From: Alphaproteobacteria bacterium
Lineage (GTDB): Bacteria > Pseudomonadota > Alphaproteobacteria > Rs-D84
Direction: 5' to 3'
NCBI GenBank assembly: GCA_017960855.1
Contig: JAGCYJ010000010.1
Span: forward strand, 8,098-72,097
DNA length: 64,000 bases
The position numbers were made by a program, and so were the translations under genes. This document shows positions 58,848 to 63,781 of this stretch, piece by piece (position 1 is the stretch's first letter; each line of letters begins with the position of its first letter). Below the pieces are notes generated by a model. It did no database searches. It was not told the DNA's origin and saw only the letters and a program-made list of their open reading frames with translations.

Positions 58848-58938
58848 GGAGACGTCGCATAGTTGGTCTAGTGCGCCACATTGGAAATGTGGTATACTCG
58901 CAAGGGTATCAAGGGTTCGAATCCCTTCGTCTCCGCCA
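58848..58938 (+). tRNA. tRNA-Ser (anticodon GGA), class II with a long variable arm
   Basis: GGAGACG...CCACATTGGAAATGTGG...variable arm TATACTCGCAAGGGTAT...AAGGGTTCGAATCCCTTCGTCTCCGCCA, 91 nt with encoded CCA. Confidence 0.92.
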
Positions 58939-58945
58939 GAAATTC

Positions 58946-58972
58946 ACCCCGCGTTTGCGGGGTAAATTTTTG
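58946..58972 (+). terminator. Intrinsic terminator after tRNA-Ser
   Basis: accccgc-gttt-gcggggt followed by aaattttt. Confidence 0.5.
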
Positions 58973-59093
58973 GCGGATTCGGGGGCAGATTTGAAGCGTT
59001 TGCAACGAATGTTGCCGGGTTCGAAAACAAGTAGATTTTGCAAGCGAAGCGTGGCGAAATCGTTACGGTTTGCCCGCAGGCACAATGTGCCGA

Positions 59094-59146
59094 GGGAATC
59101 CCTTCGTCTATTATTGTTCATCAAGGACAGGGTTTCGTCTCCGCCA
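59094..59146 (+). repeat. Two partial direct copies of the tRNA-Ser 3' region (att-like scars / pseudo-tRNA debris)
   Basis: GAATCCCTTCGTCT (59096-59109) and ATCAAGG..TTCGTCTCCGCCA (59120-59146) repeat segments of GTATCAAGGGTTCGAATCCCTTCGTCTCCGCCA from the tRNA (58906-58938). Confidence 0.6.
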
Positions 59147-59309
59147 CAAATATTGAACATCCCGTGGTAATTCCGCGGGATGTTCTTTTTCGCCCCGTTT
59201 CCGGCAGTTTTTAGTGATGATATTACCAGTGTATATCGCTACGCGTTTCCAATCCGCCCAAGTTCAGCACAATTATATACTTTGCCCCAAATCCCGATGC
59301 CAGTTTTTA

Positions 59310-59338
59310 TTGATTTTTTGTGCTATTTGTGATATAAT
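59310..59338 (+). promoter_or_regulatory. Near-consensus sigma70 promoter (TTGATT-N17-TATAAT, with TGn extended -10)
   Basis: TTGATT at 59310-59315, a 17-nt spacer ending in TGA, and TATAAT at 59333-59338, about 85 nt upstream of the toxin start. Confidence 0.5.
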
Positions 59339-59352
59339 GAACGCGATTTAGT

Positions 59353-59378
59353 AGACGACATTTTGTCGTCTTTTTTTT
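59353..59378 (+). terminator. Terminator-like hairpin inside the toxin-gene leader (possible attenuator)
   Basis: agacgaca-tttt-gtcgtct followed by T8, lying between the predicted promoter and the ATG at 59423. Confidence 0.4.
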
Positions 59379-59422
59379 ACCCCGCCACGTGCGGACTTTT
59401 TTATTTAACTAAAGGAGTTATA

Positions 59423-60547
59423 ATGCAAACACCAAAATTTTTACGCGATTTATTACAATCTAATAACTATTGGAACAAAAACAGCGCTGAATTTGCAAAA
59501 GCAAATGAATATCTAGAAAAACTGTTTCCTGGCAAATTGCAGCAAGATGCAACTGGTCAATATATTGAACCCAAATACGATATGACCTACGAACAGTTTC
59601 TGGGTGCACAAAAAAAATTTGACGATGACATACAAAATGCAATTCAAGAAGCCGAGGCAGAAGCGGAAGCAGAAAACGAGATTTTGGTCGATTATTCACA
59701 ATTTGTGGAAATCGACGAAGAAATAGATGTTCGTGTTTTAATGCCTTTGGGTGATATACAAAATGAAAAATTGATTGTTTATACACTAAACATTCCAGAT
59801 GACGATGATGAAGAGCCCACCGAGGCAAAAAAGATTTGGATTTGGCACAGTGAAGACGATGAACGTATTTGCGATGATTGTGCATCACATAATGGTGAAG
59901 TATTTGAAGACAAAGATGATATTCCAGATGTTCCTGTTCATCCTAATTGTCGTTGTTGGGTTGAAGAAGTAAAGCTGGACGATAACGGCAAACCAATTTC
60001 CAGCAAGGCTTATAAAGGCCAAAAGCCAGAAGTACCGAAAAATGACAAAGAACCTCAGTCAGAAAAAACACCAACTTTTGACAAACCTGTTGATATAAAA
60101 GAAGGTCAATATGCTAAATTTGATGGCAAAACATTAACAATATATCAAAATGGCAAAGTTGTTGCATCATGGAATGCAGTATCTGGAAAACCTGGTTACC
60201 AAAGTCCAGGATATCAAAATTTAAAAGATAAAGGAACTATTCCAGCAGGAATATATGTAGCAAGACAAAGTGAATTGCAATTCTATAAAGATATCAGTTG
60301 GGGAGATAGACAACGTTCTGCTATCGGATTTGGAACTTGGCGCGGTGGCACCGATTCTTGGGGCAATTCGCGCGTATGGTTGGATGCATCAAAAGACACA
60401 AACACATATGGGCGTAGTGGATTTTCTATTCATGGTGGATCTGTACCGGGTTCTGCAGGATGTATAGATTTAACATCTTCTATGGACAATTTTACAAAAT
60501 GGTTTGAAAATAATGGACATGATTTAATTATCAATGTAAAATATTAG
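59423..60547 (+). CDS. Polymorphic toxin: N-terminal region with a MuF/SPP1-gp7-type CxxC...HPNCRC motif plus a C-terminal Tlde1/DUF2778-like L,D-transpeptidase-fold domain
   Basis: AAGGAG RBS. WIWHSEDDERICDDCASHNGEVFEDKDDIPDVPVHPNCRCW (aa 138-180). C-terminus ...FDGKTLTIY.NGKVVASWNAVSGKPGY...KGTIPAGIYVA...GRSGFSIHGGSVPGSAGCIDL... shows the H...S.GC catalytic pattern. Confidence 0.75.
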   Translation: MQTPKFLRDLLQSNNYWNKNSAEFAKANEYLEKLFPGKLQQDATGQYIEPKYDMTYEQFLGAQKKFDDDIQNAIQEAEAEAEAENEILVDYSQFVEIDEEIDVRVLMPLGDIQNEKLIVYTLNIPDDDDEEPTEAKKIWIWHSEDDERICDDCASHNGEVFEDKDDIPDVPVHPNCRCWVEEVKLDDNGKPISSKAYKGQKPEVPKNDKEPQSEKTPTFDKPVDIKEGQYAKFDGKTLTIYQNGKVVASWNAVSGKPGYQSPGYQNLKDKGTIPAGIYVARQSELQFYKDISWGDRQRSAIGFGTWRGGTDSWGNSRVWLDASKDTNTYGRSGFSIHGGSVPGSAGCIDLTSSMDNFTKWFENNGHDLIINVKY

Positions 60548-60549
60548 GC

Positions 60550-60891
60550 ATGAAACAAAAAATATACCCATTATTGTATACTGTGGCAATATTCTTGTCT
60601 GGGCTTTTTTACATATTTTTATGTGATTTAGCATATTTTGATAGAATAGCAAAAAATGGTGGGATATGGTTGAGTTCATGTTCTTATTTAACAGGACACT
60701 CACAACAGGTATGCATGGCACATTATGATGTGTTGTGTATACTTGGAGTGCTTGGATGGTTAGTGTGGTTAGGATATGTTCTTGTCCCGATCTATAAAAA
60801 CAAAACGTTTTTTATTCCTTTGCTTGGAATACCTGTTTTTTTTATGTTTCAATTGATATTATGTTCAATACTAAAAATAGTATGCTTATAA
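60550..60891 (+). CDS. Candidate cognate immunity protein (113 aa, about 3-4 TM, conserved Cys residues)
   Basis: Starts 2 nt after the toxin stop. Paralogous to 61360..61686, which follows the orphan toxin tip. Confidence 0.6.
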   Translation: MKQKIYPLLYTVAIFLSGLFYIFLCDLAYFDRIAKNGGIWLSSCSYLTGHSQQVCMAHYDVLCILGVLGWLVWLGYVLVPIYKNKTFFIPLLGIPVFFMFQLILCSILKIVCL

Positions 60892-61242
60892 TATTGTAAC
60901 CTGATTCTCCCGCGCAATCTGAAACAAATCATTAACATTTATTTTTAGTTTTCCAGACAAGATTTGATTTATCTTGTCTGGATTCATGTATGCAATGTCC
61001 AGATATCGATAAAATTGACGTGGCGAAGTGTGCAGATTGCGGATGATATTATCAACCCCGCCATCACGTTCATATAATTCGCGATACTTCCATGCGGTGG
61101 CAAAGGCTTTCAAAATTAAATGATTATTGTCGGTGACATTTAATACACCGTTTTTACCACGGTCGTATACCGTATTAACGTATTTCCGTAGGAACACTTT
61201 TTCTGTGATTGTTACACTGTTGTCGTCAATGATGTATTCCAT
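60886..61242 (-). pseudogene. Remnant of a serine-recombinase/resolvase-family gene (C-terminal about 118 aa only)
   Basis: LILKAFATAWKYRELYERDGG.DNIIRNLHTSPRQFYRYLDIAYMNPDKINQILSGKL resembles the L.KA.A.A.RW...L..G.....IA......YV.R.L.L..L.PDIV..IL.G tail of alphaproteobacterial recombinases. No catalytic N-terminal domain is present. Confidence 0.4.
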
Positions 61243-61243
61243 G

Positions 61244-61342
61244 GGTTCTGCGGGTTGCATCGATTTGACAAACGAAATGCCGGGGTTTGCCGATTGGTTT
61301 AAAAACAATGGAAAAGATTTAATTATTAAAGTAGAATACTGA
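61244..61342 (+). pseudogene. Orphan toxin C-terminal tip (33 codons, no start context)
   Basis: GSAGCIDLTNEMPGFADWFKNNGKDLIIKVEY versus GSAGCIDLTSSMDNFTKWFENNGHDLIINVKY at the end of 59423..60547. Similarity begins 1 nt from the recombinase-remnant start codon. Confidence 0.6.
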
Positions 61343-61359
61343 AAAGATAAAGGCACAAA

Positions 61360-61686
61360 ATGAAAAAAATATTAAACAGAATAAGTTATTTTTTAACAGT
61401 ATGTTTGTTTTTTGCCTTGAATATTTTTTTATTTGATTTAGTTTGTATCGGTAAAATCTCAAAATTTAATCATATTTGGGTAAATGTGTGTCCGTTTGAT
61501 GTTGACGGTGAATATTTGGTATGTATGATAAATTATGATATTGCGTTTATTGTGTTTATATTGCCAATAGCGTTTTTTATGTTGTTTTGGTTAATGCGAA
61601 TATACGGCAAACAGGTGTTGCTGGTTCCGTTTTTTGGTTTTTTACTGTTTGTATTATCAATAATAACATATTGGGGATTTGTCTGA
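61360..61686 (+). CDS. Orphan immunity-protein paralog (108 aa, multi-TM)
   Basis: FLFDLVCIGKISKFNHIWVNVCPF..GEYLVCMINYD aligns with FLCDLAYFDRIAKNGGIWLSSCSY..SQQVCMAHYD in 60550..60891. Confidence 0.6.
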   Translation: MKKILNRISYFLTVCLFFALNIFLFDLVCIGKISKFNHIWVNVCPFDVDGEYLVCMINYDIAFIVFILPIAFFMLFWLMRIYGKQVLLVPFFGFLLFVLSIITYWGFV

Positions 61687-61764
61687 AATATTTAAGGTTT
61701 CCTTGTAAAACCCTGTATTTTTCATATATAATACCGTTAAATATTACAACACCGCCACAAAAAT

Positions 61765-61795
61765 CAAACGCCCCAATGGGCGTTTTATTTTTTTT
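61765..61795 (+). terminator. Intrinsic terminator
   Basis: aaacgcccc-aat-gggcgttt followed by tattttttt. Confidence 0.55.
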
Positions 61796-61812: not shown

Positions 61813-61840
61813 TTGACAAACAATATATATTGGGTATAAT
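61813..61840 (+). promoter_or_regulatory. Consensus sigma70 promoter TTGACA-N16-TATAAT
   Basis: TTGACA at 61813-61818 and TATAAT at 61835-61840, 22 nt upstream of the ATG at 61863. Confidence 0.55.
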
Positions 61841-61862
61841 CGGTTGTAAATAGGGGTTAAAA

Positions 61863-62507
61863 ATGGATATTACTACACGTGTCTACTTTAGTATAGAGGG
61901 GTCGGGAAACAATGCTTATGGTATGAAGGATATAACTTGTGCAAAAAATACCGATGATATTAATGATCGGAATTTGGAATCTGATTTGGGACTGAAAACT
62001 ACAGAAAGATTATTGCGCGAAATACAATCTTTCTGTAAAGATTTACCTGAAAATCCCATATGTGGCAATCAATTATATAAAATAACAATAAAAAGAAATG
62101 TACGGTTTTTCACACCGGGTATGCGTAATGATTGCTACGGACAGGACGAAACAGATCACTTTAGTTTTATTTTCAGCAAATCAAACAATCTGTTATATTC
62201 ATCAGATTTATTTCAAAACTTTGAACATGTCCTGGTAGAAAATATTTTCAGCAAACGCGATGGGCAACAGTGGAAAGAAGTTAAGGTTAAGGACTTGAAC
62301 TCATATTCACCATTATGGGCCGAGCAAGCAGATTCAAAAGACACTGTCCATGTTTCTTTCATACCTTCAAAGCAGATTGTTGTTAACAGTAAATTACAAG
62401 AAATTTTTCCGAGGGTGACCGGGCGCATACCAGAGGCGTTGATAAATCTGTTGAAACGCAAGACAGAAATTGTTACGCAAGTAAATATGCATGGCATCCA
62501 GCGTTAG
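61863..62507 (+). CDS. Hypothetical protein (214 aa), first gene of a two-gene operon
   Basis: AGGGG RBS. Intact ORF with no recognisable motif. Confidence 0.55.
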   Translation: MDITTRVYFSIEGSGNNAYGMKDITCAKNTDDINDRNLESDLGLKTTERLLREIQSFCKDLPENPICGNQLYKITIKRNVRFFTPGMRNDCYGQDETDHFSFIFSKSNNLLYSSDLFQNFEHVLVENIFSKRDGQQWKEVKVKDLNSYSPLWAEQADSKDTVHVSFIPSKQIVVNSKLQEIFPRVTGRIPEALINLLKRKTEIVTQVNMHGIQR

Positions 62508-62524
62508 TTCAAGGGGACTTTTCT

Positions 62525-63781
62525 GTGTTAAGTATATATGACAAAAATATTATATCATTGGACGAAGCTACGAACATGCCATATATGATTGCAGGTGGTA
62601 AGTTTGCCGGATTGTTTGTCTTGGATAATTTAATGAAGAGTTATAACACGAGATTCAACACCGAATTTGTTGTTCCGCCAACATTTGGGATCCCGTTGTT
62701 AAAGTTTGATGAATATCAGGAAACCAATAAGATACCGGATACATTGATTGATGATGCCATGGATTGCGCCAAAAAACTTGGCGGAAATGTCGCTGTGCGT
62801 TCTTCGGCAGATATAGAAGACCAAAAGGGGAAAACATATTCCGGTCAGTTTGAAAGTGTTTTAAATGTAAAAACGCGCGACCAAATGGTAAACGCCATAG
62901 AGAAGGTGTATAAATCCGCGGCTAATGTACCAAATGCCAGAATGGGAATCGTCCTGCAACAAATGGTTGATAACCCAAAAATGGCTGGGGTGGTGTATTC
63001 TGAAACTTGGTATGGTGGTCCATTCGTGGTAATGAATTATGTAGAAAACGCGTTGGCAGATAAATTGTTGGCAGATGGCGGTCGTGGCGAATATTTTGCA
63101 ATCAGCAAGCCCTTGTTTGATGAAAACCATCAAATGATACGGTTGGATTTAAAAACCTTTAATGATTTAAGGTACAATACTTTCTTTTGCAGAGATTGGC
63201 GTACAATATCCCCAGAAAAACTTGAATCCCAAGACAGAGAAAAATATAAAACACATATTTTGCTTTCTGCGCTGGCTATGCAACTGGAACAGAGTTTGGG
63301 TTATCCCATAGATATGGAATTTGCGGTATCGGCGGATGGAAAAATGAACATATTGCAACAGCGACCATATTGTCTTCCTGAATTTTATAGAAGAGAGATA
63401 GACGACCGCACAACATCCGTCTTTTCATCAGAAACGATAGTGCTGGAAGGCACAGTTGGCTTTATAAAGCGCCTGCATCCATTTTCTGCAAAACCAGAAT
63501 ACGATATAAACATATGGAAATCAGAAGAGAGTATTCGTATTTTCACCAATAAATCGGTTGGCGTAGGATTTAAATTTATGACTTCTTGGTCAAATTCACC
63601 GTTTGAAGCCCAGTATAATCACCATGGTAATATGTCGCGCGAGAATCTTGATTTCACAGAACTGGAATTGTGGGGTCGCAACGCTGAATTTGAAAATATA
63701 GAAGAGGGTGATCGTATTCTGGTTGATATGTATAATGGCAAAGTTAAATTAATTGCCAAGGCCAACGAGCGTCAGAAATAA
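62525..63781 (+). CDS. PEP-utilizing/PPDK N-terminal (ATP-grasp-like nucleotide-binding) domain protein with a possible degenerate swivel-His domain
   Basis: GTG start after GGGGA. GGKFAGL..., VAVRSSADIEDQKGKTYSGQFESVLNV, MGIVLQQMV...AGVVYSE match PPDK_N hallmarks. The C-terminus ...HHGNMSRE...EEGDRILVDMYNGKV resembles a mobile His domain. Confidence 0.7.
   Translation: MLSIYDKNIISLDEATNMPYMIAGGKFAGLFVLDNLMKSYNTRFNTEFVVPPTFGIPLLKFDEYQETNKIPDTLIDDAMDCAKKLGGNVAVRSSADIEDQKGKTYSGQFESVLNVKTRDQMVNAIEKVYKSAANVPNARMGIVLQQMVDNPKMAGVVYSETWYGGPFVVMNYVENALADKLLADGGRGEYFAISKPLFDENHQMIRLDLKTFNDLRYNTFFCRDWRTISPEKLESQDREKYKTHILLSALAMQLEQSLGYPIDMEFAVSADGKMNILQQRPYCLPEFYRREIDDRTTSVFSSETIVLEGTVGFIKRLHPFSAKPEYDINIWKSEESIRIFTNKSVGVGFKFMTSWSNSPFEAQYNHHGNMSRENLDFTELELWGRNAEFENIEEGDRILVDMYNGKVKLIAKANERQK

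Follow-up and report, generated by a model that had tools for sequence, protein, structure and literature searches.

In loci with orphan cdiA-CT/cdiI or rhs-CT/rhsI modules, which belong to the contact-dependent growth inhibition (CDI) and Rhs systems, a toxin fragment that lacks its 5' part lies downstream of a full toxin-immunity pair, along with an immunity gene that is intact. Such orphans are displaced former toxin 3' ends, with mobile-element debris at the junction. We analyzed a comparable locus in a 64,000-nucleotide (nt) stretch of DNA from an Alphaproteobacteria bacterium (GenBank assembly GCA_017960855.1; contig JAGCYJ010000010.1, positions 8,098 to 72,097), which is referred to here as the window. 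In this locus, a toxin gene ending in a short segment (tip1) is followed by a presumed immunity gene (imm1), the oppositely oriented 3' remnant of a serine recombinase (integrase) gene, a second toxin end (tip2), and a second immunity gene (imm2) (Table 1). The comparators were metagenome assemblies throughout (L numbers denote contigs or loci; P numbers denote proteins), and the complete arrangement of the window was found in six independent metagenome contigs. The comparisons suggest that the orphan tip2-imm2 probably arose by insertion of tip1, imm1, and the integrase tail into a resident toxin gene ending in tip2, followed by cargo swaps.

Both the layout and the proposed displacement origin are like those of the CDI and Rhs orphans. 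The locus appears to be a well-documented and fairly ordinary case of toxin-locus reshuffling that fits the known displacement model. However, its delivery module is of the MuF type and not CdiA or Rhs. Its orphan is limited to the C-terminal 32 residues and begins within the catalytic domain, at the Cys motif, whereas CDI and Rhs orphans comprise the complete C-terminal toxin domain that follows a VENN or PxxxxDPxGL boundary. The block conserved between the orphan and the active gene is only ~27 nt long, and the locus is located in the slot of a tRNA-Ser island with a serine integrase. Most described tRNA islands have tyrosine integrases. With those tRNA-targeting islands that have large serine recombinase integrases and swappable defense cargo, the islands analyzed here share integrases with Resolvase and Recombinase domains, partial tRNA 3'-end direct repeats, tandem accretion and decay, and a hot spot for Abi/TIR/SIR2/DarTG-type genes, but their integrase is paired with DUF2924, a family for which the literature searched contained only three papers. 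This combination was seen here only in metagenome-assembled genomes (MAGs) of the Enterousia/Rs-D84 type, and the islands constitute a previously undescribed family. The components that differ from those of the CDI and Rhs modules are the MuF-Tlde1 toxin outside a prophage, the membrane immunity proteins, the break just past the catalytic Cys motif, and the location in a serine-integrase slot.

MuF polymorphic toxins of temperate phages combine an N-terminal MuF/SPP1-gp7 motif with variable C-terminal toxins and a small downstream immunity gene (PMC5576092; PMC3482391); the 2017 paper on these toxins makes no mention of orphan, recombinase, or peptidoglycan (PMC5576092). The window toxin shares the PF04233 motif, the downstream immunity gene, and the swappable ends (one N-terminal module carries Tlde1 in L011 and a lysozyme/pesticin-like domain in L002). 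In contrast to the phage toxins, it has no prophage head or portal genes nearby and lies in an island remnant of ~3 kb between a tRNA and the integrase tail. Tlde1/Tldi1 is a type VI L,D-transpeptidase-fold effector and immunity pair (PMC9638812). Tlde1_dom, YkuD, and the His...Gly-Ser-x-Gly-Cys motif are common to Tlde1 and the window toxin, the presumed target of which is periplasmic peptidoglycan. Unlike Tlde1, the window toxin is fused to a MuF module, with no type VI secretion system context near the locus (the rest of the genome was not surveyed), and unlike Tldi1, the immunity candidates are predicted membrane proteins with three transmembrane (TM) segments and without a known family.

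The orphan toxin end, the integrase tail, and their junction

The initial annotation of the window had described a second copy of the toxin end and a paralog of the immunity gene. Both descriptions were confirmed. The sequence at 61244-61339 encodes GSAGCIDLTNEMPGFADWFKNNGKDLIIKVEY, which is identical to the C-terminal 32 amino acids (aa) of the toxin at 22 positions (BLASTP E value, 9e-15), and full-length genes elsewhere share this tip, which is identical at 28/32 positions to the end of the L011 toxin and at 30/32 positions to P0266 (from L151) and P0267. At the DNA level, tip2 and the active toxin gene are identical at 67 of 96 nt, with a longest exact run of 11 nt. The similarity begins abruptly at GGTTCTGC, and there is none 5' of 61243/61244. 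Tip2 has neither the catalytic His nor any start codon and is a dead fragment. The products of imm2 (108 aa) and imm1 (113 aa) share 27 identities over 97 positions (28%; E value, 1e-10). Each has three hydrophobic segments in the same layout, with a pair of conserved cysteines (positions 44 and 55) in the first loop.

Between imm1 and tip2, a 118-codon open reading frame (ORF) on the minus strand (60889-61242) corresponds to the C-terminal ~118 residues of a large serine recombinase of ~535 aa, as suspected in the initial annotation. The remnant is 47 to 94% identical at the amino acid level to the C-terminal ~115 residues of 59 intact reading frames (526- to 557-aa proteins), including 91 to 94% identity to the tails of the intact genes in L016, L018, L020, L022, and L024, and it aligns only to residues 418-532 of the 532-aa P0146. 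A profile search with homologs of the remnant retrieved 501- to 551-aa proteins, which were matched at their C termini. The full-length relatives carry Resolvase (PF00239; E values, 1e-38 to 1e-40) and Recombinase (PF07508) domains. The window remnant has neither the Resolvase domain, with its nucleophilic Ser, nor PF07508 and is thus a gene fragment and not a recombinase. Direct Pfam, NCBIfam, and PADLOC scans of the 118-aa ORF and of a 156-aa ORF (60886..61356) gave zero matches, and a PDB sequence search with P0007, a longer homolog, gave chance matches only. The 156-codon ORF is the tail read on into the reverse complement of the tip and not a separate, unrelated intact gene. The initial protein search retrieved nothing longer than fragments of 206 aa, and a small-protein family or a recurrent truncation at the Met was considered. 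This reading was overturned by the intact ~535-aa genes from the profile search and the genome scan; many gene calls of 115 to 118 aa simply begin at the first ATG downstream of varied lesions.

The homology breakpoint had been thought to coincide to the nucleotide with the start codon of the remnant. Instead, the ATG at 61240-61242 is an invariant internal Met of the recombinase family, and the recombinase homology extends past it through 61252, where intact genes read ...AAAACGCAGAACCCATGGAATAC. The recombinase and toxin homologies therefore overlap by 8 to 9 nt, at GGTTCTGCG. At the equivalent site, the intact recombinase gene of L136 reads AACGCAGAACCCATGG; this gene natively contains CGCAGAACCCATGG, the reverse complement of which overlaps the toxin's GGTTCTGCG. 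Toxin genes read GGTTCTGC(A/T/G) at this site. The junction is identical in L004-L009, L131, and L142. A second type of junction is present in L002 (5280-5340) and L003, where an out-of-frame fusion within CGCAGAACC joins the initial ~25 codons of DUF2924 to the tail. The L002/L003 tail differs from the window tail at 35 codons, 28 of them synonymously.

Comparator loci and the origin of the orphan

Two groups of comparators would represent the resident gene before and after the split. In the sister species represented by L011, L012, and L151, the rpoZ/tRNA-Ser locus is as in the window, and an unsplit toxin gene ending in tip2 is followed by imm2. The imm2 homolog that follows the toxin gene in the sister species is 74% identical to the window imm2, and from GGTTCTGC to the end of imm2 the window and L011 are 82.7% identical at the DNA level. 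In the sister strain L142 (a MAG contig with the locus as in the window), a resident toxin body is joined to tip1, imm1, and the tail, followed by the junction and the orphan. The L142 body is of the L011 type (84% aa and ~82.5% nt identity to L011), its tip1 is 100% and its imm1 99% identical to those of the window, and the tail, the identical junction, tip2, and imm2 follow. The gene changes from the resident to the tip1 type between GATTT and AACATC. A patch in L142, GGTTCTGCGGGTTGCATCGATTT, is identical at 23/23 positions to the first 23 nt of the orphan, to which the window's own toxin gene has four mismatches and L011 and L151 have three. The near-equal divergence from L011 of the body (~82.5%) and of the orphan with imm2 (82.7%) would be expected of two halves of one gene. 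Because of this matching divergence and the 23/23 patch, the L142 body and the orphan look like halves of one resident gene. The unsplit genes of L011 and L151, together with the chimera and identical junction of L142, thus bear out the initial suggestion of an orphan tip/immunity layout derived from a fossil insertion junction.

Several comparisons point to later cargo swaps. From imm2 through tip2 and ~150 nt into the tail (to ~61094), the window and L131 are 100% identical; the identity decays beyond this point and is lost at the tail stop codon. Over ~61053 to 60506, the window is instead 92 to 100% identical to L002. L131 has the tRNA side and the junction of the window but carries a gene for a 163-aa cargo protein in place of the toxin gene and imm1. 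P0029 represents a third 3' variant of the tail behind an identical junction, and L142 has a conversion patch of nine differences within the tail (61174-61216). In the intact recombinase genes of L033 and L045, identity falls from 93.5% over the first 1200 nt to 51% over the last ~200, and the cargo differs. On the basis of these mosaics, slot cargo and the integrase 3' end appear to move jointly by homologous recombination, for which the dead tail evidently served as an anchor. Such recombination most likely placed the present full-length toxin gene upstream of tip1 in the window.

The observations are the homologies and the junction sequence, together with the split genes of the comparators and the mosaic profile of identity; from these, we infer the following order of events. 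In an ancestor of the strain, the slot would have carried a MuF-Tlde1 toxin gene with a tip2 end, and imm2 after it. A segment of ~0.8 kb, comprising tip1 and imm1 together with the 3'-terminal ~118 codons of the convergent integrase gene, would then have been copied in from another island copy, directly past the codons of the catalytic GSAGCID motif. The right-hand join would have used 9 nt of microhomology (toxin GGTTCTGCG is the reverse complement of integrase CGCAGAACC), and the left-hand join would lie in GATTT/AACA, with duplication of the 23-nt target patch as a result. Template switching or another illegitimate insertion would best fit both the duplication and the microhomology. The toxin would thereby have gained a new tip and immunity gene, while the old tip2 and imm2 were displaced downstream as the orphan. 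Later homologous recombination, anchored in the island left arm and the dead integrase tail, would have swapped slot contents between strains, and one such swap in the window lineage would have put the present full-length toxin upstream of tip1. With both gene halves, the unsplit version, and three later cargo states preserved, the locus provides a rare nucleotide-level record of the birth of an orphan immunity module.

Several points weigh against this history. The presumed donor (toxin-tip1-imm1 beside an intact recombinase gene carrying the window's tail allele) was found in no contig, and no intact full-length tip2 toxin with a MuF N terminus was seen (L011 has an in-frame TAA, and L151 is 5' truncated). 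The L142 toxin, on which the proposed primary product is based, itself has no 5' part, and a function of the original chimera is not implied. That the L142 type came first and the window type later is inferred on parsimony only. Chimeric contigs among the MAG comparators are possible, yet the junction recurs in at least nine independent contigs. The L002/L003 junction falls in the same 9 nt as that of the window, a coincidence that the insertion model leaves unexplained. This coincidence of two differing junctions (toxin tip/tail and DUF2924 codon ~25/tail) would be accounted for by site-specific recombination, by the serine recombinase itself or another enzyme, at a hot spot inside the integrase gene, and the synonymous differences between the two tails are unlike one recent event. 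Such a hot spot is nevertheless extremely improbable, given that the breaks of further truncated copies lie elsewhere (at residues ~274 to ~404 and, in L143, ~40 codons upstream), that the junction site has no dyad symmetry, and that the real attachment (att) sites of the island family are at the tRNA 3' end. A metagenome scan with the junction 17-mer returned 47 matches, comprising 45 chance matches, one intact gene, and one window-type contig, with no further junction types. Another alternative, which we also regard as unlikely, is that a complete toxin-tip1-imm1 island accreted beside an older toxin-tip2-imm2 module. A single deletion by microhomology (or homology-facilitated illegitimate recombination), with its end points at integrase codon ~414 and the GSAGC codons of the old toxin, would then yield the window arrangement directly, and the L142 chimera would have formed later and separately. 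The 9-nt microhomology is equally compatible with this scenario, and the window taken alone is explained equally well. The locus contains partly collapsed island copies in tandem as well as several partial tRNA 3' ends, an attR-type remnant directly follows imm2, and the intact island in L037 has cargo beyond DUF2924 that is oriented as tip2-imm2. However, it would then be a coincidence that the L142 body matches L011-type genes, that its 23-nt patch is identical to that of the orphan, and that its crossover lies at the very motif where the orphan starts. Furthermore, the imm2-type genes of L077 and L146-L149 sit in the slot against the recombinase 3' end and not on the far side, and no far-side toxin was found on other intact islands among 80 recombinase loci. 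Because of the L142 chimera, we prefer a tip-switch insertion to a plain internal deletion.

The insertion model is also compatible with a function for the tail, in which the 118-codon ORF would be retained either as an expressed DNA-binding protein, which might interfere with incoming islands, or as a recombination anchor for cargo exchange. The ORF is open in every copy of the window junction, the ratio of nonsynonymous to synonymous substitution rates (dN/dS) between the window and L002 tails is 0.056, and the tail was demonstrably used as a crossover region. Residues 40-112 are predicted to form a five-helix bundle (block-mean predicted local distance difference test score, 77 to 92), for which ParB/Spo0J/Noc helix-turn-helix (HTH) domains were the best Foldseek matches although none was significant (E values, ≥0.7); some tail variants match HTH_7. 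Nevertheless, alleles that diverged within functional integrase genes and are refreshed by gene conversion, which the patch of nine differences in L142 suggests, would be expected to show a low dN/dS. The ATG has no Shine-Dalgarno sequence 5' of it, disorder is predicted for residues 1-38, and stop codons occur in other truncated copies (L078). A retained function seems quite improbable. It is conceivable, although doubtful, that the tRNA-Ser islands as a whole constitute a two-anchor platform for cassette exchange, in which the ~25 residues after the catalytic Cys and the membrane immunity protein form the specificity unit and the tail is kept by selection. The left arm and the integrase 3' end may be the handles by which single defense or toxin cassettes are swapped among strains, whether the integrase is dead or not, and the tail may be kept as an anchor or a ParB-like DNA-binding protein rather than persist as neutral debris.

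The active toxin and the two immunity genes

The 374-aa toxin had Pfam matches above the curated cutoffs to Phage_Mu_F (PF04233; 32.2 bits versus a cutoff of 29.6; residues 130-180 only, i.e., the C-terminal core in the last ~50 residues of the model), Tlde1_dom (PF10908; 30.7 versus 30.1), and YkuD (PF03734; 27.5 versus 23.4), whereas the score of TIGR01641 was below its cutoff. The L,D-transpeptidase-fold region spans residues 236-363 and contains the motif SIHGG...GSAGC with the catalytic His and Cys. On the basis of these matches and motifs, the product is predicted to be a MuF-type polymorphic toxin with a peptidoglycan-directed Tlde1 domain. A ribosome-binding site (AAAGGAG) is located 7 nt 5' of the ATG. 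No phage structural genes were found within the island, and the neighbors comprise housekeeping genes in addition to the tRNA, immunity gene, and integrase tail. Between a promoter-like site (59310-59338) and the toxin start, there is a GC-rich hairpin with a T run after it (59353-59371), which may be a leader or attenuator; the L011 toxin gene is also preceded by a similar hairpin and T run.

Tlde1 bodies of one type end in either tip1 (L142 and P0263) or tip2 (L011, L151, and P0266). The end covaries with the gene that follows: tip1 is always followed by imm1 (the window, L002, and L142) and tip2-like ends by imm2-type genes (L011, L151, and L146). The linkage of tip1 and imm1 is kept in L002, L142, and L004-L009. 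The products of imm1 and imm2 matched no known family in Pfam or NCBIfam; we label them immunity genes because they are small membrane-protein genes that covary with the toxin end, and toxin and immunity activities are to be read as predictions, as is any expression. If it is true that the short tip sets immunity specificity, the Tlde1 fold would contain a compact toxin-immunity recognition determinant that can be tested directly.

The constant length of the imm2 family (22 homologs, nearly all of 108 aa) and its dN/dS of 0.23 to 0.38 are consistent with imm2 as a retained orphan immunity gene, which probably still protects against tip2-type toxins from neighbors. The terminator scan found no plus-strand terminator-like site between imm1 and imm2, and read-through from the toxin operon could therefore supply imm2 transcripts; alternatively, transcription might start from a promoter-like site at 61049-61078. 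Decay of the toxin with the immunity gene kept is common nearby, as seen in the in-frame TAA of L011 and the 5' deletions of L151 and L142. In L011 (5560-5562) and L012, a CAA-to-TAA change at the KEGQYA position splits the toxin gene into 198-aa and 132-aa ORFs, with the immunity gene intact. The L011-type species is widespread (its imm2 homolog is indexed in 128 blocks of the contig collection).

The initial annotation had also cast the orphan as a reservoir for tip switching by recombination, a role that was not demonstrated. The orphan and the active gene are ~70% identical with exact runs of ≤11 nt, the block they share for homologous recombination (the GSAGCIDL patch, ~27 nt with four mismatches) is insufficient, and the orphan is also kept in strains without an intact toxin (L131 and L142). 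Exchange at the GSAGCIDL patch did occur in the family (L142), apparently by short-homology or illegitimate events.

Other arrangements of toxin ends and immunity genes were observed in two comparators. In L002 (6027-8671), a MuF-lysozyme toxin gene, two unrelated genes, a 22-codon tip1 fragment, and an imm1 gene abutting the tail form an orphan array with a tip fragment shorter than that of the window. In L077 (6602-8537), a toxin gene is followed by tandem immunity-type genes (one of 106 aa and one imm2-type gene of 108 aa) with almost no tip remnant between them, and the latter gene overlaps the 3' end of the intact recombinase gene.

A family of tRNA-Ser islands with a serine integrase

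A scan of species-representative genomes for the recombinase family yielded 80 loci from ruminant, bird, rodent, and human guts, with MAG labels of nearly all Candidatus Enterousia or Alphaproteobacteria. An uninterrupted frame of at least 520 codons was present in 59 of these loci, a DUF2924 gene always preceded the recombinase gene, and a tRNA-Ser gene (tga, gga, or cga) was located 170 to 2900 nt past the recombinase stop codon, on the opposite strand, in 61/80 loci. These features identify the family as the putative integrase of small islands at tRNA-Ser genes in gut Alphaproteobacteria that resemble Candidatus Enterousia. The tRNA and the integrase 3' end delimit a cargo slot that is variable and usually contains a single gene. 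Its cargo (L015-L094 and L143-L145) includes Abi_C, TIR/SEFIR, SIR2-like, protein kinase, HATPase (HATPase_c_3), and CoiA-like genes, as well as Hypoth_Ymh, DUF2806, and DarT-NADAR, and by this gene content the slot is a predicted hot spot of defense and competition. In L077, an intact recombinase gene is convergent with a homologous toxin gene and two immunity genes in the slot; toxin-immunity sets are therefore genuine slot cargo. Genomes of the host lineage (Enterousia, order Rs-D84) are smaller than 1 Mb, and these uncultured bacteria still invest in predicted peptidoglycan-targeting toxins, orphan immunity genes, and a swappable defense slot.

An intact element of 6.1 kb is present in L037 at the same rpoZ/tRNA-Ser(gga) locus as that of the window. 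Its left arm begins directly after the tRNA sequence CCGCCAG and matches window positions 59147-59260, and its far end consists of a 19-nt repeat of the tRNA 3' end and a terminator. A reverse transcriptase-like gene, with a DD motif in the region RFVDDYHIF, lies on the far side of this element.

The region 58939-61746 of the window is best explained as the decayed remnant of small integrative islands of this kind inserted at tRNA-Ser. Its slot holds the toxin gene and imm1, followed by the recombinase tail and then by tip2 and imm2 (Table 1).

Table 1 Features of the toxin-immunity locus and the island remnant in the window
Feature	Position	Strand	Description
tRNA-Ser(gga)	58848..58938	+	Attachment target of the island family (ARAGORN; Rfam tRNA, 59 bits)
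Collapsed older island copy	58939..59109		Terminator hairpin and conserved ~130-nt "right-arm" segment with partial tRNA 3' end
Degenerate tRNA-Ser 3'-half copy	59110..59146	+	attL-type repeat; 14-nt and 17-nt matches to the tRNA 3' end
Island left arm	59147..59338	+	Hairpin 59155-59185, conserved arm, and promoter-like site 59310-59338 (promoter/terminator scan)
Toxin gene	59423..60547	+	374 aa; predicted MuF-type N-terminal module and Tlde1/YkuD L,D-transpeptidase-fold domain, ending in tip1
imm1	60550..60891	+	Presumed cognate immunity gene, directly 3' of the toxin gene; 113 aa, three TM segments (hydropathy)
Recombinase 3' remnant	60886..61252	-	~121 codons, without catalytic and recombinase domains
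Junction GGTTCTGCG	61244..61252		Toxin codons G-S-A are the reverse complement of recombinase codons A-E-P
Orphan tip2	61244..61342	+	Last 32 codons and stop of putative displaced Tlde1-type toxin gene; catalytic Cys included, His excluded
imm2	61360..61686	+	Orphan immunity gene (predicted), intact; 108 aa, three TM segments
attR-type remnant	61747..61785	+	CCGCCA and native tRNA-Ser(gga) terminator; aligns with the L018 tRNA 3' end and terminator

The left arm is 95 to 99% identical in L131 and L142. The right-arm segment is also present at the far end of the L041 element, beside a partial tRNA 3' end, and in L018; strain L142 lacks 58959-59109. In L131, the equivalent of the 37-nt repeat at 59110..59146 is present twice, as direct copies flanking the island remnant. 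The attR-type remnant (61747-61795 region) marks the right edge of the inserted DNA, with the terminator displaced 2.8 kb from the tRNA. L131 and L142 contain extra sequence past this remnant that is not in the window, which in L131 includes a further 37-nt att-type repeat.

The right-arm segment contains tRNA-like T-arm motifs with a compensatory stem change (GCAAC/GTTGC in the window versus GCCAC/GTGGC in L018 and L041). A two-piece tmRNA was considered for the tRNA-like sequence after the tRNA (smpB is nearby), but this had no Rfam support; a search of the 58939-59146 region found nothing besides the tRNA. Seven loci (L019, L023, L054, L060, L042, L027, and L057) carry a copy of the tRNA-Ser(tga) 5' half (all or part of positions 1-36), located ~120 nt 5' of the intact tRNA, on the flank opposite the island. 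The region between the island edge and murC (61813-63781) contains a pair of genes behind a perfect TTGACA-16-TATAAT promoter; PADLOC was negative for both genes. They encode a 214-aa protein without a family match and a 418-aa protein with only a PPDK_N ATP-grasp-type domain, and the pair is also present in L142.

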